Below, piece after piece: positions 12,280 to 38,775 of a stretch of DNA of 48,271 nucleotides; the first letter of the stretch is position 1; each line of letters opens with the position of its first letter. A program made the translations under genes and the position numbers. A model generated the notes under the pieces. The model saw nothing but the letters and a program-made list of their open reading frames with translations. It searched no databases and was not told the origin of the DNA. This DNA comes from Atractiella rhizophila (lineage: Eukaryota), in NCBI GenBank assembly GCA_021432655.1, contig MU271538.1, positions 1 to 48,271 of the forward strand, read 5' to 3'.

Positions 12280-12849
12280 TCATAATCCCCCGTATTCTTC
12301 CCCGATCCCACCTCCATATCCATTTGCCAAATCTTGCTGCCCCTGAATATGCAAGACCTTCGCAGTATTGAACTTGTTCTGACACTCTTTCCTCAGATTG
12401 TCGAGGGTCACGACTAACTTGGTGATCGCATCTTTAACCGCCTTTTACCCAAATCACATCCAAACGCATTCCTGTCAATATCGCAAGAATAGAGAGATAG
12501 AAGTGAAGGTAGAGATAAACTAACCTGGATAGGAGTAAGACTGCCGTCCGTTTGAACCTTCAACACGAACCGTGGTTCAAGGGGATGAGGTACTTGGACA
12601 CCAGCGAACAGGACAGAGTCCATGAGGAGGAGTTGAGAGCGGAGAAGGTTCGCAATCGTCCAGTCTTCTTTGTTAACTGTTATGGTAGCTGCGTTCGGGA
12701 TTTTGGTATCTTCCTGAATTTGCAACCTGCGGATCAGGATTAAAATGGTTAGAAAGGAGTCAAAGGGTAGAGGAAAAGGGAAGAAGGAGCACATACCGGT
12801 TTTCCCCTTCGGCAAGGTTGAAGAGCTCGTAACGTGTTGGAGCGTTCAT
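12280..12849 (-). CDS. RPB11: RNA polymerase II subunit Rpb11
   Basis: MNAPTRYELF...EDTKIPNAATITVNKEDWTIANLLRSQLL...VPHPLEPRFVLKVQTDG; two short introns. Confidence 0.93.
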
Positions 12850-18560: not shown

Positions 18561-20947
18561 AGCCCATGAGTAAGAAAAGCACGTACTCGAGCGTGATGTT
18601 GACTAGCGCTCGCTTGCAATGTGCGTAGCGCGTTCGGACCCTCGATGGATATCGATTCGAGCATTATTCCCCCACCACCAATTCGGGTCGGGAGAACAAC
18701 GGGCCGCTCACTGATCAGGCGGGGAAGCTTGGGACCTCCTCCACCCTCATCGACGCCGGGAAGAAGATTGTCCCAAACTTCATTGCGTCAAGCTCCAGGC
18801 AGCTCGTGAGGTTTCTATGGGATCGATGAGGTGAGGAGCAGCCCTTATATTTATCTTCAGATCTTCCACATGGAAGTGTGTGAGGTTGAGCTGCATAAAA
18901 GAGGAACCTCGGCTCCTCTCGTTTCTCCCATTGGGAGCTGAACGTTTGAACGCACCATGAAACTGTTCGCTTTGACGGCTCTTGCCTTTCAGGTGGCACT
19001 TGCGGCTCCAACCGTTGAGGTGAAGCAAGGGACCATCGTTGGAGTAGACTTGCCAAATTTCGATCAAGAGAGTAAGCAAAGCTCGCCGACTTGAAATTAT
19101 GATTGAATAGGACATTAGTTTTCCTTGGCATTCCCTACGCTCAACCACCTCTTGGAGACTTGAGATTACGAAAGCCTCAGGCTTACAACTCGACGTACGA
19201 CAACTTTGACGCATCGAAATACTCCCCGCTGTGTTGGAATTTACAGTCGACTATTTCGGATGGAAACGATTCTCCACAAGATGAAGATTGCGTAGGTTGT
19301 TGACACTCGCATTGGAGACAATGTCAACTGAGTGGGATTTCCTTAGTTGACTTTGAACATTGTAAAGCCAAAGAATGCCACAAATCTTCCTGTCATGTTT
19401 TGGATGCATGGGTAGGTCCCAGTTCGAATGCCACAATGGCCTGCTTATCAAGAATAGGGGAGGGCTACAGTGGGGTGGAAGCGTAAGGTCACACATACTT
19501 TCCATGAAAGACTAATGAGGAAGTCAGTCTCTCGATTGGTACAATGGCACATATCTGGTGCAAGCAGGCCGGGTAGGCTCTTCTTTATTCATTTCCGCCT
19601 CCTCACCTCGTATATCAGAACTTCTCCAACGACATAGTTTTTGTATCAATCAACTATCGCCTATTGTCGTTGGGGTTTCTTGGTGGTAAAGCCTTGCTAG
19701 ATGAAGGCAATGTGAACCTTGGACATCAAGATCAGCGACTCGCCCTTAGTACAAGCCCATGAGTAAGAAAAGCACGTACTCGAGCGTGATGTTGACTAGC
19801 GCTCGCTTGCAATGTGCGTAGCGCGTTCGGACCCTCGATGGATATCGATTCGAGTATTATTCCCCCACCGCCAATTCGGGTCGGGAGAACAACGGGCCGC
19901 TCACTGATCAGGCGGGGAAGCTTGGGACCTCCTCCACCCTCATCGACGCCGGGAAGAAGATTGTCCCAAACTTCATTGCGTCAAGCTCCAGGCAGCTCGT
20001 GAGGTTTCTATGGGATCGATGAGGTGAGGAGCAGCCCTTATATTTATCTTCAGATCTTCCACATGGAAGTGTGTGAGGTTGAGCTGCATAAAAGAGGAAC
20101 CTCGGCTCCTCTCGTTTTCTCTCATTGGGAGCTGAACGTTTGAACGCACCATGAAACTGTTCGCTTTGACGGCTCTTGCCTTTCAGGTGGCACTTGCGGC
20201 TCCAACCGTTGAGGTGAAGCAAGGGACCATCGTTGGAGTAGACTTGCCAAATTTCGATCAAGAGAGTAAGCAAAGCTCGCCGACTTGAAATTATGATTGA
20301 ATAGGACATTAGTTTTCCTTGGCATTCCCTACGCTCAACCACCTCTTGGAGACTTGAGATTACGAAAGCCTCAGGCTTACAACTCGACGTACGACAACTT
20401 TGACGCATCGAAATACTCCCCGCTGTGTTGGAATTTACAGTCGACTATTTCGGATGGAAACGATTCTCCTCAAGATGAAGATTGCGTAGGTTGTTGACAC
20501 TCGCATTGGAGACAATGTCAACTGAGTGGGATTTCCTTAGTTGACTTTGAACATTGTAAAGCCAAAGAATGCCACAAATCTTCCTGTCATGTTTTGGATG
20601 CATGGGTAGGTCCCAGTTCGAATGCCACAATGGCCTGCTTATCAAGAATAGGGGAGGGCTACAGTGGGGTGGAAGCGTAAGGTCACACATACTTTCCAGG
20701 AAAGACTAATGAGGAAGTCAGTCTCTCGATTGGTATAATGGCACATATCTGGTGCAAGCAGGCCGGGTACGCTCTTCTTTATTCATTTCCGCCCCCTCAC
20801 CTCGTATATCAGAACTTCTCCAACGACATAGTTTTTGTATCAATCAACTATCGCCTATTGTCGTTGGGGTTTCTTGGTGGTAAAGCCTTGCTAGATGAAG
20901 GCAATGTGAACCTTGGACATCAAGATCAGCGACTCGCCCTTAGTACA
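18561..20947. repeat. Head-to-tail tandem duplication: unit 1 18561-19753, unit 2 19754-20947 (~99% identical)
   Basis: Near-identical sequence offset by 1193-1194 nt, with a handful of substitutions and one 1-nt indel. Junction ...tagtaca|agcccatgag has 1-nt microhomology. Confidence 0.97.
18957..19753 (+). pseudogene. 3'-truncated copy of the carboxylesterase gene (ends at HQDQRLAL, before the catalytic Ser)
   Basis: Same exons as the 20151 gene, then runs into the duplicated upstream region. Confidence 0.8.
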
Positions 20948-33895: not shown

Positions 33896-34902
33896 ATGTC
33901 ACATACCACAGCTGCTCTTGCCCCCATTGTCGAAGGAGAAGCAGACGAAGCTGTCCGGAATGGATTTCCAACGGAGGAAGCTGAGGCGTTGAAGCTCGAT
34001 GCTGCCGACCAGATCAAGTTCAACATGATCCGGGCTCATGTGGTGTTGAAGAATGGGTACAACTCTGTCGTCAGGCAGGTCGATGACGATCATTCTAATG
34101 ACCTGGATAATTGGATTGGGTACTTCTTCTCTCTTGATCCTCGTACTTTTGAACTAAATGGATGTCCCTCGCTTAAAGTTATGTACAGTCGTGGCTCATA
34201 AACGTAGCACACCGTAAGCCGTCCGTGGAGCGATCAGAGTTGATGCAGACGTGTACCATTTCGTTGGAACAGACCATGATTCGGAAGAGAAACACCTTTT
34301 CCCATATCTGAGCACGAAATTGGATGTGCAAGAGGAGCTTGAAGATCACAAAATAATACACCATGGCATCGACGAGATGTTGGAGTGGTTTGCAGAGGTG
34401 AAGAAAGACCAGTCAAAGTACTCTTCCGAAATCTTGAAGTTTGTATTCCCCTCTCCCCAGACTTGATTTAATCCAAATTTGAATGCAGGGAGAAGTTGTC
34501 TCGCATGGGACCAACGTTCATCAAGCATCTAACAGAAGAAGTGGAGCACCTTTCGTTCGTCCTTCCTTCTGTCCATCCGAACGTATTTTAATTCGAGAAG
34601 GCACGAGAACCTGTCCCAATTTCCCGCAGATGGGCTAGAAGCTGCCTGGCGGGAAGTAGAAAACTATGCGAAGAAGCATGCGGACCCTTTCGTAGGACTG
34701 CCTTTTGCGAAATCCCACACGCCTCCGGAATACAAATGGTGGCCATCCCTTCCTTGGTTCTTGAACAAAATACTCGTATGTATCTCCCCTCCTCCAATCG
34801 CTCTAAGAGTTGCTGACGACGCGATTGGCGGGATTTTGTTAGTTGCCTCTGTTCGCGATGAGGTATTCGGGATATTGGAAGTACTCGCCGTATTCAACGT
34901 GA
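33896..34902 (+). CDS. Hemerythrin-like (HHE cation-binding) protein
   Basis: Spliced motifs MIRAH, VAH|HHDSEEKHLFP, EDHKIIH and KHLTEEVEHL; C-terminal RYSGYWKYSPYST*. Confidence 0.85.
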
Positions 34903-37308
34903 TTGGAATCACGATGTGGACATTCGCGCTGTAGAAATGTACTTACCTTCGCTTCATAATTTGACTACAGTAGTGCCTTCTTGCATCCAACCAGGCCGCG
35001 ACGGATTTGGGAGATTAAAATGGATAGATTGGCTACCTTTCTACTCCAAAATGCTGTCTTCGCTCGGTGCAACATAGAACCTCCATTAGCCTGTCAGGCA
35101 CCTAACAGACAAGGTGCTATGATGAAATGAGGAGGAGTTGTGCAATGGTACCATGAAAACCAGCTGGAACTTCTGACTAGTGTGAGCGGAACGTGAAGCA
35201 ACTGCATCAGACTTCGCCAATAGCCATAAGTCCTGCTCAGCCTATCCCTTTCCGCAATCCATATCCTAAAATGATCACGCCAAATCGTTGTGGCCTGATC
35301 TTTTCCGACCGCTGAGGAGCCGATTGGGGGAGCCGAGGGAGGCACAAGACTACAAAATCACGCAAGAGAGCTGCAACGACAGCTAAACATCTAGGCACAG
35401 TTGTCCCTCGCTCAGGATATCGACAAATATGTACGAAGATCCCTCCGCCGCCTGGGCCTCGCCATCCGAAACATTCAGCACACCACAACCCGATCTCAGC
35501 TCCACTTTCTCATCACCCATCCCAGCTTCTCTAAACTCCAAGTCCGATGCTCTGAATTCCGACAAGGCAAGGACGACGTTTGAGGACGATGACGATGGTC
35601 CAGATTGGTCCACTTCTTCCTCTCCAGTCGCACCGCCAGCGGCACAGTTGACGCTTTCGACAAGGAGCCATGGGCAGAGGAAGGTGGAGGAGTTGGAGAG
35701 TGGCGAAAGTAGTCCAACGGACGAAGATAACGAGTTTGAGGAGGCCCTCGATTCGTTGCCTCTCGAAGAGGCGGCCACCGCTCCTTCTTCGCCTCCACCC
35801 ACCACATCAAAATTGGCGGACGATTCATCAGCATCGACGCCGCCTGCACAGTTGCCAGAATCCAAAGAATCGAAAGAAGAAGTAGATGCACCGCTAGAAA
35901 CGCCTCTTGCGTCGACAAACGTGTCGAAACCGGCAAGGAGCACCTTTCGTTCGTCCTTCCTTCTGTCCATCCGAACGTATTTTAATTCGAGAAGGCACGA
36001 GAACCTGTCCCAATTTCCCGCAGATGGGCTAGAAGCTGCCTGGCGGGAAGTAGAAAACTATGCGAAGAAGCATGCGGACCCTTTCGTAGGACTGCCTTTT
36101 GCGAAATCCCACACGCCTCCGGAATACAAATGGTGGCCATCCCTTCCTTGGTTCTTGAACAAAATACTCGTATGTATCTTGCCTCCTCTAAAAGCTATGA
36201 GAATTGCTGAGGAGGCGATTGGCGGGACTTTGTCAGTTGCCTCTGTTCGCGATGAGGTATTCGGGATATTGGAAGTACTCGCCCTATTCAACGTGATCGG
36301 AATCACGATGTGGACAGTCGCAATGTACTTACCTTCGCTTCATAATTTGACTATAGTGTGTGAACTCCTGCGTGTAACCTGACCACGACGGATGTAGGAG
36401 ATTATAATGGCTACCTTTTTACTCCAAAATTGCTGTCTTTGCTCGGTGCAACATAGAACCTCCATTAGCCTGTCAGGCACGTAACAGACAAGGTGCGATG
36501 ATGAAATGAGGATGAGTTGCGCAATGGTACCATGAAAGCCAGCTGGCACTTCTGACTAGTGTGAACGGAACTTGAAGCAACTGCATCAAAATTCGCCATT
36601 AGCTGTCAGCCTGGCCAGTGTATCCCTTTTCACATTCGATACACGCGGGCCGTCGCAGACTACAGCATTGATCTTTCCCGACCGCCTGAGGAGCCGATTG
36701 GGGGAGCCGAGGAGTGCAAGTGCACAAAATCACGCAAGAGAGCTGCAACGACAGCTAAACATCTAGGCACAGTTGTCTCTCGCTCAGGATATCGAGAAAT
36801 ATGTACGAAGATCCCTCCGCCGCCTGGGCCTCGCCATCCGAAACATTCAGCACACCCCAGCCCGATCTCAGCTCCACCTTCTCCTCACCCATCCCAACCT
36901 CTCTAAACTCCAAGTCCGAGCCTCTGAATTCCGACAAGGCAAGGACGACGTTTGAGGACGAAGACGACGGTCCGGACTGGTCCACTTCTTCCTCTCCCGT
37001 CGCACCGCCAGCAGCACCGTTGACGCTTTCGACAAGGAGCCATGGGCAGAGGAAGGTGGAGGAGTTAGAGAGTGGCGAAAGCAGTCCAACGGACGAAGAT
37101 AACGAGTTTGAGGAGGCCCTCGATTCGTTGCCTCTCGAAGAGGCGGCCACCGCTCCTTCTTCGCCTCCACCCACCGCATCAAAACTGGCGGACGATTCAT
37201 CAGCATCGACGCCGCCTGCACAGTTGCCAGAATCCAAAGAATCGAAAGAAGAAGTAGATGCACCGCTAGAAACGCCTCTTGCGTCGACAAACGTGTCGAA
37301 ACCGGCAA
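34543..37308. repeat. Head-to-tail tandem duplication: unit 1 34543-35936, unit 2 35937-37308
   Basis: Both units start ggagcacctttcgttcg and end gtcgaaaccggcaa. The ends are near-identical; the intergenic middle is visibly diverged, with indels. Confidence 0.97.
35429..36382 (+). other. Chimeric ORF created by the duplication junction (DUF5102-like N-terminus + hemerythrin C-terminus)
   Basis: First ~169 aa match the 36801 gene; the rest reads through a 46-nt intron into HENLSQFP...WFLNKIL of the hemerythrin gene. Confidence 0.6.
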
Positions 37309-38775
37309 TGTTTTCGTTACCTCCTCCTTCCTCGGATCTGTCGAGTACAAGTCGACAGGACCCGCCGATGGATGAGTTTCCGGATGACGACTTTGGGGAT
37401 GATGGTTTCGGAGAGGTAGCTGGTGGAGATGACGACTTTAGGGACTTTGGGGACTTTGGAGACTTTGGGAATGGAGATGGATTCGAGAGCATGGACATGG
37501 GACGTGGTGAGGGAGATTTAGGAACAGGATCATCGCAAGTGAGTTGTTCCGCTTCTGATCAATTTGGCGGGGTTAAAAGAAAAGAAGCTGTTGTGTTTCC
37601 CACTAAAGAGAGAAGTGGTCGAGATGATTATAACACGAATACCAATCAAACAATCTGTCAATCCGCTGAGCAAGCTTGTGTTGCAAGCGTTGAAGAAAGC
37701 GTATTCAGAGCTATTTATGATCACCACTTATCACCTTCTCCATTTGCTTTGTTGCAATCAAATTGTCTCCTAACCGACACAATCCCGTTCACAGCCGACA
37801 CCTTCAGCCTCACGTCCACCGCCGTCCTCACCACCTCTAAAGCTCCCCTCAGAACTAACACACACCTCACTGCTCCCCCTCACGTCTTCCCTAATCACCA
37901 CTCTCTACCCCACCCTCTCTTCCTCCCTCACGACCGACCGTGCACCCTCCCGCATACCCCTCTCCCCATCCACCAAAGCCCTCCTCACACACCTCACCTC
38001 TCCCCCCGACTCCACACTCAGCGTGACCACCTTCCAGCGCAGCTTGACCCGCAGAAGCTACCTCCAGGCGCTCGGCATACCCGTTAACCTGGAGGACTTT
38101 TTGGAGGATGTAGGTGGAAGAATGGGCAAGTTGGAGATCGATACCGGGCGGACGGAGGCGTCTGTCGCTGGCGCTGGTGGTGTAGGTGCGAGTGGTCAGA
38201 AGAGTGCACCGGTGAGAGGTGCTTCGTCGTCTGTGCCTGCACGGAAGAGGGAGGAGAGTGCGGCGGGTAAGAAGCCGGAGATCGATAGGAGTCGGATAGC
38301 AGAGATCCTCAAACTTAACGAGGGTGCGTTATCTACTTGTTTCGCTCCTTCTTAGCTTCCTTCATTTGGGAAGTGGAGATGATAAGAAACTGACCCTTTT
38401 GCTGCGTTTGTGTTGACAGATGAACTGTTGCTGTTGCCATTACCATCCCTCAAGAAACTTCACGCAGAGATCAGCACACTGTCGGGAAATACCAGCAGCC
38501 TTCTTACTTGGACCTTGCAATTGAGGGAGAAAGAACAGCAAGACGGAGAGGCATACAACAGCATGATCTCCGTACGTGTTCATCGTTCCCAATTCAGAGC
38601 AAATGCTTATATAATGTAGGACCTCATCTCCTCCGCTGCCAAGATGAAAACCAGCAAGGGGTCGTCGAAACCCTCACCCGTAAGACGAGATAGCGCAAAG
38701 ACACCGACAAGTAGATGGGGAGGTGGAATGAGTAGTCCATCGGGGAGACAGAGCCCAGCTCCCATGCGGAGCTGA
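36801..38775 (+). CDS. Acidic DFGDF-motif protein, DUF5102 / yeast Laa2-like (probable AP-1 accessory factor)
   Basis: DDDFGDDGF...DFGDFGDFG motifs; C-terminal FQRSLTRRSYLQALGIPVNLED and EQQDGEAYNSMIS|DLI. Intron 37539-37794 restores the frame. Family assignment from memory. Confidence 0.75.
37613..37729 (+). ncRNA. Intron-encoded box C/D snoRNA, predicted guide for 18S rRNA Um (yeast U1231 / human Um1288 equivalent)
   Basis: Terminal stem aagtggt/accactt; C box ATGATTA 37624-37630; D' CTGA 37666-37669; C' TTGAAGA 37690-37696; D ATGA 37717-37720. Guide caatctgtcaatcc 37651-37664 is the exact complement of conserved 18S GGAUUGACAGAUUG. Confidence 0.85.

Follow-up and report, generated by a model that had tools for sequence, protein, structure and literature searches.

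A eukaryote-wide family of box C/D small nucleolar RNAs (snoRNAs) is known under the names Nc CD44 (Neurospora crassa), snR82, snoR14 and HBII-55, the last of which is presumably the same RNA as SNORD110. In Table 1 of Liu et al. (2009, BMC Genomics 10:515), Nc CD44 is given as an intronic RNA of 85 nt, seen by northern and reverse transcription (RT), whose first target is 18S-Um1227, reached through 15 bp by the guide upstream of the D' box, and whose second, predicted target is 26S-Cm776, assigned to the D guide. The same table lists as homologues snR82 (S. pombe), snoR14 (Arabidopsis) and HBII-55 (human), and none for S. cerevisiae. For SNORD110, a 2026 preprint gives 18S Um1288 as the target. 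The kink-turn (k-turn) of box C/D RNAs carries U:U at 3b:3n and G:C at 4b:4n (Ashraf et al., 2017). According to "The fungal snoRNAome," 4.2% of fungal C/D snoRNAs deviate at position 1 of box D, usually having A there, and the remaining positions of box D are at least 99.7% conserved; sequences with boxes off the canonical pattern were discarded in that survey, and its main text does not mention the CD44 family. The present analysis concerns an element at positions 37613..37729 of the forward strand of a 48,271-nucleotide stretch of DNA from Atractiella rhizophila (contig MU271538.1), the whole of which is called the window below. This element is very likely an intronic box C/D snoRNA belonging to the known family, with non-canonical C and D boxes that compensate for each other.

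The sequence features were located by direct reading of positions 37300-38100 and by script indexing, and all of those described here lie on the forward strand. The element, of 117 nt including its terminal stem, is framed by AAGTGGT (37613-37619) and its exact reverse complement ACCACTT (37723-37729), a 7-bp stem that is also formed in the minimum-free-energy (MFE) fold of the element (37613-19 with 37723-29). The 5' half of this stem, the C stem of the k-turn (37613..37622), continues through a bulged C37620 to G37621 and A37622, and the 3' half (37721..37729) begins with U37721 and C37722; two further pairs, G37621-C37722 and A37622-U37721, are possible beyond the bulged C. Then comes the predicted three-nucleotide bulge G37623-A37624-U37625 (37623..37625), whose geometry is taken from the standard k-turn description and which overlaps the first two positions of the C box, AUGAUUA (37624..37630). 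The D box, AUGA, occupies 37717..37720.

Neither box has the form expected of a C/D RNA, namely RUGAUGA near the 5' end and CUGA near the 3' end. Position 6 of box C is U in place of G (k-turn position 4b), and position 1 of box D is A in place of C (k-turn position 4n); since box C/D k-turns have G:C at 4b:4n, it is this pair that is changed here. The G-A at positions 3-4 of box C, which forms the k-turn, is intact together with U5, and so is the UGA of box D. By its sequence, the element would form a kink-turn, in which the 7+2 bp stem and the GAU bulge are followed by the tandem sheared pairs G37626.A37720 and A37627.G37719, by U37628.U37718 and by Watson-Crick pairs, U37629-A37717 standing for the usual G-C and A37630-U37716, with the nucleotide preceding box D, coming next. 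A second C-box register, GAGAUGA, overlaps AUGAUUA, the window reading GAGAUGAUUA at this place; the AUGAUUA register is favored because of its homology with other loci and its pairing with box D.

Between the two boxes, the element contains the D' antisense guide CAATCTGTCAATCC (37651..37664), a single unpaired G (37665), the D' box CUGA (37666..37669), a hairpin between D' and C' (37674..37688) made of GCTTG (37674-37678), a 5-nt loop and CAAGC (37684-37688), the C' box UUGAAGA (37690..37696), and a D-proximal region GCGTATTCAGAGCTATTT (37699..37716). The last of these is a possible second guide, a candidate only, and varies between lineages. The boxes, the 7-bp stem, the 3-nt bulge, D', the internal hairpin and C' had all been proposed in the preliminary description of this DNA, and all of them were found where it had placed them.

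The guide is the exact complement of the 18S ribosomal RNA (rRNA) motif GGAUUGACAGAUUG, with which it would form 14 contiguous Watson-Crick pairs. Counting five nucleotides upstream from D' leads to A37661, which lies opposite the first U of GGAUUG in the 18S sequence. One copy of the 14-mer is present in the window, where 0.06 occurrences with up to 1 mismatch are expected by chance. Its reverse complement is printed within an S. cerevisiae 18S depletion probe and recurs in the literature, mostly in what the listing indicates to be 18S primers. A search of viral contigs with the 14-mer returned 120 loci, nearly all of them chance matches in phage-like DNA; only one, L190, is 18S. This is a fragment of eukaryotic small-subunit (SSU) rRNA (RF01960 SSU_rRNA_eukarya, 261.8 bits, model positions 1170-1524) that contains the complement of the guide.

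By the D'+5 rule, the guide would address the U equivalent to N. crassa U1227 and human U1288, an equivalence of numbering that rests on the published homologue table and not on an alignment of our own. The guide lies upstream of D', and not of D, in an intronic gene, as tabulated for Nc CD44. These observations support the proposal that the D' guide selects the 18S U matching the human SNORD110/Um1288 site, where a methylation is predicted. The statements of the preliminary description about this site fared well: that the 14 nt before D' exactly complement 18S rRNA, which was confirmed by indexing at 37651-37664 and by the presence of the complement in both the S. cerevisiae probe and L190; that the site is the SNORD110/Um1288 equivalent, for which the D'+5 rule, the N. 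crassa CD44 table and the passage on SNORD110 in the preprint speak together; and that it is not known to be methylated in S. cerevisiae, which agrees with the absence of an S. cerevisiae homologue from the table of Liu et al. (2009).

Relatives of the element were collected by scanning metagenome contigs for the guide followed by NCUGA, a 19-nt pattern, which gave at least 110 loci (numbered with L below); all of the family counts are among the matches listed. The D' box CUGA, as part of the pattern, is invariant among these loci by construction. After removal of duplicates, 87 distinct sequences including the window remained, of which 80 had a recognizable upstream C box; the seven without a C box (7/87) look like chance matches, and two sequences are cut by contig ends. 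The boxes were assigned in 77 sequences (76 loci and the window), and 45 sequences (44 loci and the window) are of the fungal type. In most of the listed loci, the C box is found 8-18 nt upstream of the guide and the D box 30-50 nt downstream.

The classes were set by the C box alone, and NUGA motifs were then scored 25-60 nt after D'. In the complete xGAUUA/C class (n = 41), AUGA was present in 41/41 sequences and CUGA also in 4/41; in the canonical xGAUGA class (n = 31), CUGA was present in 30/31 and AUGA in 5/31. Both the AUGA comparison and the CUGA comparison between C-box classes gave a Fisher p of ~1e-14. The motif AGAUGAUUA contains xGAUGA, and the window and the loci of this kind were therefore placed in a separate ambiguous-register class, xGAUGAUUA (n = 6), with only AUGA in the window, L029 and L083, only CUGA in L034 and L094, and both in L058. 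No unambiguous half-changed C/D combination was found among the 77 box-assigned sequences. All 45/45 fungal-type sequences deviate at position 6 of box C, with compensation in box D, and a U before box D (UAUGA), which pairs with A7 of box C, occurs in 42/45. Because AUGA accompanies xGAUUA/C in 41/41 sequences and CUGA accompanies xGAUGA in 30/31, the swap of G-C for U-A in the k-turn is a real covariation across a clade; the unusual compensating boxes turn out to be the norm among the fungal family members listed.

Some variation was observed within these classes. The C box reads AGGAUUA in L033, L054, L064 and L077, that is, box-C U2, the last nucleotide of the bulge, is G; in their D box, UAUGA, and in GCUAUGCUCUUU, their D-proximal sequence, these four loci agree with AUGAUUA members, for example L027 and L036. 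L034 and L094 read (G/A)UGAUGAUUA with the D box CUGA, and both C-box registers overlap in them. A group of GC-rich, marine-looking canonical members (L002, L008-L010, L018, L025, L039, L040, L062, L068, L071, L078, L087, and L104) shares a different D guide, AUGGUGCCCUUCCA; the second guide of the family therefore differs between clades.

The sequences around the boxes were also compared. The mean longest helix between cognate flanks was 4.60 bp, versus 3.51 bp between non-cognate flanks (Mann-Whitney p = 4e-7), and helices of at least 7 bp were found in 13/77 cognate flank pairs, the window among them, versus 3.5% of the non-cognate pairs; the terminal-stem sequences differ from locus to locus. 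A D'-C' hairpin of at least 3 bp, also of differing sequence, is predicted in 28 of 45 family members, and a spacer of 6-10 nt takes its place in 16. Additionally, a hexamer resembling a 5' splice site lies at most 120 nt upstream of box C, mostly 27-59 nt away, in 33 of the 43 fungal-type sequences with enough flank (42 loci and the window).

A covariance model, R1, was built from the 44 fungal-type loci, the window being left out. In the alignment of these loci, the GAUU of box C, the scan pattern and the AUGA of box D are invariant, and the C box is either AUGAUUA or AGGAUUA. RNAalifold predicted no consensus structure on the 44-sequence alignment, and for this reason only the two Watson-Crick pairs of the k-turn were supplied to R1. 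When both strands of the 48,271-base window were searched, R1 gave a sole match, at 37614-37730, which is full length and scores 48.7 bits (E 1.1e-7). The boxes C, C' and D, the U before D and the spacing all add to this match, so that the similarity goes beyond the guide; the C' box UUGAAGA is aligned by R1 with the family C' consensus UUGAUGA. In the alignment fitted to the model (A2), the 4b:4n columns contain UA in 53 rows, GC in 22, CG in 1 and other combinations in 3, with no one-sided change, and the covariation score is 0.448 versus 0.088 when shuffled, a value of 0.448 being reached in 0/500 shuffles. The model, being trained on U-A, misregistered several canonical rows in A2 (e.g., L019, L046, L087, and L105), and the motif counts by C-box class are preferred over A2 for that reason.

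Rfam was also run on 20 of the at least 110 loci (15 canonical and 5 fungal-type), and no family copy was recognized; the only matches were to neighboring snR60/Z15 and snR61 genes in L066. That locus contains a polycistronic snoRNA cluster (L066:282-1586) with three family copies with canonical boxes, at 411-523, 556-668 and 1475-1586, interleaved with the Rfam snR60/Z15 (282-390 and 1349-1459) and snR61 (1222-1312). The preliminary description had predicted that scanners requiring canonical boxes would probably miss the window element. This held for Rfam, which finds nothing; for scanners in general it is doubtful, since Nc CD44 bears no cDNA-library flag in the table of Liu et al. (2009), which suggests that it came from the snoscan screen of those authors.

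The element lies in a phase-0 intron of 256 nt (37539..37794, forward strand), with a GTGAGT 5' splice site, a CTAAC branch motif at 37770-37774 and a CAG 3' splice site. The snoRNA would start 74 nt past the 5' splice site, and from its end there would be 44 nt to the branch A and 65 nt to the 3' splice site. Exon 1 of the host gene (36801..37538, forward strand), delimited from its translation, RNA contigs and repeats, comprises 246 codons from the first ATG and gave no Pfam match. Exon 2 (37795..38322, forward strand) matches the Pfam domain PF17104 YBL010C_LAA2 (E 2.6e-11), which we take to be the former DUF5102, and is followed by a second intron at ~38322-38418. Four public RNA runs were compared over 36700-38500; all consist of assembled contigs, which are informative on splicing and unable to show a small RNA. 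The splice joint 37538->37795, which skips 256 nt with GT..AG borders, is present in metatranscriptome contig X2 and in X16, and an equivalent joint in X5; these three leave the intron mostly or wholly uncovered, X2 and X16 joining across it. The RNA contigs confirm that the host intron is spliced. The location of the element in a 256-nt intron of a DUF5102-like gene, as first proposed, therefore agrees with the sequence, with the RNA joints and with the PF17104 match of exon 2.

Further features of the host gene were observed. For its second intron, X16 shows two alternative joints, 38318->38418 (with 3 inserted letters) and 38322->38419 (GT..AG). The 5' part of exon 1 belongs to a tandem duplication of ~1.38 kb (34543-35936 versus 35937-37310, 93-96% identity, spacing 1372-1394), which takes in the promoter of the LAA2-like gene together with roughly its first 170 codons. 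Because of this duplication, the open reading frame (ORF) at 35387-36382 begins with the LAA2-like N-terminus MYEDPSAAW... and then diverges. In the X16 RNA contigs, many positions within 36945-37262 occur in two letter variants, which would be expected if the duplicate copies are both transcribed or are collapsed in the assembly. Two identical weak tblastn matches on the minus strand, 1194 nt apart (19371-19496 and 20565-20690), suggest another tandem duplication in the window. A GDA1-family ORF matched only generic eukaryotic apyrase clusters in the ESM Atlas, and the intron signals together with the LAA2 and Vps41 Pfam families suggest a fungal source.

The hosts of the other loci were examined through long same-strand ORFs starting 100-280 nt after the guide. 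In 20/26 loci tested in this way, the downstream exon on the strand of the snoRNA codes for a subunit of the tRNA-splicing endonuclease (PF01974 tRNA_int_endo, E 1e-12 to 4e-17), namely in L001, L006, L007, L014, L016, L017, L022, L024, L027, L028, L029, L031, L035, L036, L055, L058, L063, L067, L076 and L077. Among the other tested loci, L049 encodes an RNA_pol_L_2 protein and five gave no match. An intron of the tRNA-splicing endonuclease gene appears to be the usual host in these fungi. When both exons of the window host were compared by tblastn (E<=1e-3) with the at least 110 listed loci, none showed an LAA2-like host, and a tblastn search of the window with three endonuclease ORFs found no tRNA_int_endo gene in it (nothing below E 0.2). 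The window copy sits in an unusual host. In a group formed by L021, L049 and L073, an Rpb11/AC19-like gene (RNA_pol_L_2) follows the snoRNA (L049:1862-2173, plus strand); the window has a 67%-identical RNA_pol_L_2 homologue at 12531-12638 on the minus strand, 25 kb away, on the other strand from the snoRNA and unconnected with it.

Several observations weigh against taking the element for a working member of the family. Its host gene differs from that of the 20 loci with a tRNA-splicing endonuclease host. The 19-nt scan pattern is shared with R1 by construction, so that the R1 score is inflated and partly circular, and the window has the lowest score among the complete fungal-type rows (48.7 versus 51.4-76.6 bits), the other rows being seeds of R1. 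Its spacer between box C and the guide, of 20 nt, is the longest (8-18 nt in the others). The target was read from the S. cerevisiae probe and from L190, and not from the 18S rRNA of the window species itself. A search of the whole window with Rfam at gathering scores gave 0 matches, and here the Infernal/Rfam check suggested in the preliminary description brought no support, no Rfam family having matched the element. At E<=10 over 37400-37950 (551 nt), Rfam proposed U8 on the minus strand (E 1.9), a plant-virus exoribonuclease-resistant RNA (xrRNA) and a long non-coding RNA (lncRNA), which were rejected as being at chance level. The fold of the whole molecule is no stabler than that of shuffled sequences (z -1.22), as is usual for C/D RNAs. 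Finally, the four RNA runs, being assembled contigs, have no bearing on a discrete RNA of ~105-117 nt, and the sole RNA contig that enters the intron (X1, 37656-37997) begins in the middle of the guide and continues into exon 2, and looks like unspliced RNA or DNA carry-over.

Some of these points would also fit a relocated, decaying paralogue, that is, a snoRNA pseudogene left unused in the LAA2-like gene while the functional copy lies elsewhere, for example in a tRNA-splicing-endonuclease intron. The host is unlike the PF01974 hosts of 20/26 tested loci and none of the listed loci is LAA2-like, the R1 score is the lowest of the complete fungal-type members, the spacers are the longest in the family, and the RNA contigs, which bear on splicing only, contain no small-RNA signal. 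Against decay, however, the four boxes are each preserved, as are the compensating U-A and A-U pairs and the guide (14/14); with 7 contiguous bp and 2 more, the terminal stem ranks among the best of the family, and the family's D'-C' hairpin is retained. Moreover, the intron that contains the element is spliced and carries it in sense orientation, with 65 nt left to the 3' splice site, and no tRNA_int_endo gene is present within the window. A pseudogene is considered unlikely.

A different possibility is that the snoRNA is functional and does more than guide one methylation, its D-proximal core CAGAGCUAU giving an extra pairing with 18S rRNA or guiding a second site. That a snoRNA may form extra base pairs beside the methylation site is well established (van Nues et al., 2011), and a D-guide target, 26S-Cm776, has been predicted for Nc CD44 (Liu et al., 2009). 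The preliminary description had suggested that the D-proximal agagctatt could pair with an adjacent 18S segment, GAUAGCUCU. L190, which is not from the window species, reads AGAGCUCU beside the target (the target followed by AGAGCUCUUUC) and so differs from this proposal, although the AGCUCU found there after the target would allow 6 bp with AGAGCU. The 18 nt before box D were tested as duplexes with 30 nt on each side of the target in L190, against shuffles. The window duplex, on the 3' side, reached -8.7 kcal/mol with 6 bp, and z -0.99; the 45 fungal-type sequences were slightly negative, with a mean z of -0.43, but only 2/45 were at z < -2. The core CAGAGCTAT is common only to the window and L109 among the listed loci, and the sharing of CAGAGCUAT with the otherwise diverged L109 would favor a function; it is, however, 2 nt nearer to box D in L109, which is a misfit with one fixed methylation site, and the D-proximal sequence varies between lineages and is unconserved across the family. 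The suggested pairing of the D-proximal element with adjacent 18S rRNA is not supported by these comparisons, and a further role of this kind seems quite improbable.

That the motifs came together by chance in an intron without an RNA gene is hardly credible: Rfam gives no match and the fold is not unusually stable, but for the 14-mer alone, even when 1 mismatch is allowed, the expectation is only 0.06 per window, a family of more than 70 distinct loci agrees with the element in boxes, spacing, hairpin and terminal stem, and the divergent flanks and host genes of these loci contradict artefactual copies of a single sequence.

For the reading of the element as an intronic C/D snoRNA of the CD44 family, the following mechanism is proposed. 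The LAA2-like pre-mRNA would be spliced, and the snoRNA would then be trimmed out of the intron. The 7+2-bp end stem would juxtapose the AUGAUUA of box C and the AUGA of box D in a kink-turn running from the 3-nt bulge through the tandem G.A/A.G pairs and U.U to U-A, at a position held by G-C in almost all C/D RNAs. Snu13, Nop58/Nop56 and the methyltransferase Nop1/fibrillarin would assemble on this kink-turn. Upstream of D', the 14-nt guide would pair with GGAUUGACAGAUUG of the 18S rRNA, bringing the first U of GGAUUG to face the fifth nucleotide before D', and this U, which would correspond to N. crassa Um1227 and human Um1288, would receive a 2'-O-methyl group. Excision of a stable RNA, protein binding and methylation in the window organism are steps that we infer only.

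With regard to the origin of the variant, one may tentatively suppose, with somewhat less than even confidence, that a large, apparently fungal clade swapped the G-C at 4b:4n for U-A and kept it in at least 45 sequences and in several hosts, and that the window copy jumped from one host to another. The switch could have proceeded through slippage in the UGAUGA repeat with loss of 3 nt, after which C changed to A in box D. Canonical members often read UGAUGAUUN, and L034 and L094 read AUGAUGAUUA with CUGA; loss of one 3-nt repeat unit from the L034/L094 type would yield AUGAUUA, and the fungal variant may have arisen in this way. If the swap and the jump did take place, the clade would be a natural compensatory-mutation experiment, indicating that assembly of the small nucleolar ribonucleoprotein (snoRNP) in vivo needs a Watson-Crick pair at 4b:4n and not G-C itself, and the window copy would record the jump of a snoRNA from an intron of the tRNA-splicing endonuclease gene into an unrelated LAA2-like gene.

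In terms of annotation, the element adds a snoRNA gene, and a predicted 18S 2'-O-methylation absent from budding yeast, at a place where Rfam pipelines report nothing. In terms of RNA structure, the 45 members with U-A at 4b:4n could offer material for testing how this pair is read by Snu13 and Nop58. The location in a tRNA-splicing-endonuclease intron in many fungi, versus an LAA2-like gene here, illustrates the mobility of intronic snoRNAs between hosts. The current understanding of snoRNAs is unchanged by these results, and the clade-wide U-A variant and the host switch are of modest interest. No publication describing the pairing of AUGAUUA with AUGA, or the supposed swap and jump, was found among papers judged by title and the opening of the abstract; such a description may stand in the supplements of fungal snoRNA surveys.

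Compared with the standard C/D kink-turn, the predicted structure shares the 3-nt bulge, the tandem G.A/A.G pairs, the U.U pair and the Watson-Crick pairs that follow, and differs in having U-A at 4b:4n. The 44 fungal-type loci (e.g., L001, L007, L033, L063, and L109) resemble the window in the xGAUUA and (U)AUGA boxes, in the C' box and often in the D'-C' hairpin, and have an identical D' guide and D'; in contrast to the window, a PF01974 exon lies downstream in 20/26 of the loci tested, and their D-proximal sequences are different. The members of the family that do not look fungal have canonical UGAUGA/CUGA boxes and another D guide. SNORD110 and snoR14 are related to the window RNA through their listing as homologues of Nc CD44, SNORD110 being reported to guide 18S Um1288; whatever entries Rfam may have for these RNAs, none of its families matched the window even at E<=10 over the 551 nt. 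Nc CD44 itself, as tabulated, is like the window element an intron-encoded C/D RNA that targets the same 18S U through its D' guide and lacks a counterpart in S. cerevisiae, and it differs in its length and pairing (85 nt and 15 bp, versus ~105-117 nt and 14 bp). The window RNA is linked to Nc CD44, snR82, snoR14 and HBII-55 by the site, the position of the guide and the intronic setting. The element is a real and ordinary snoRNA whose unusual points are the k-turn variant and the host gene, and the window RNA is a new member of the known eukaryote-wide Nc CD44/snR82/snoR14/HBII-55 family, the family itself not being new.

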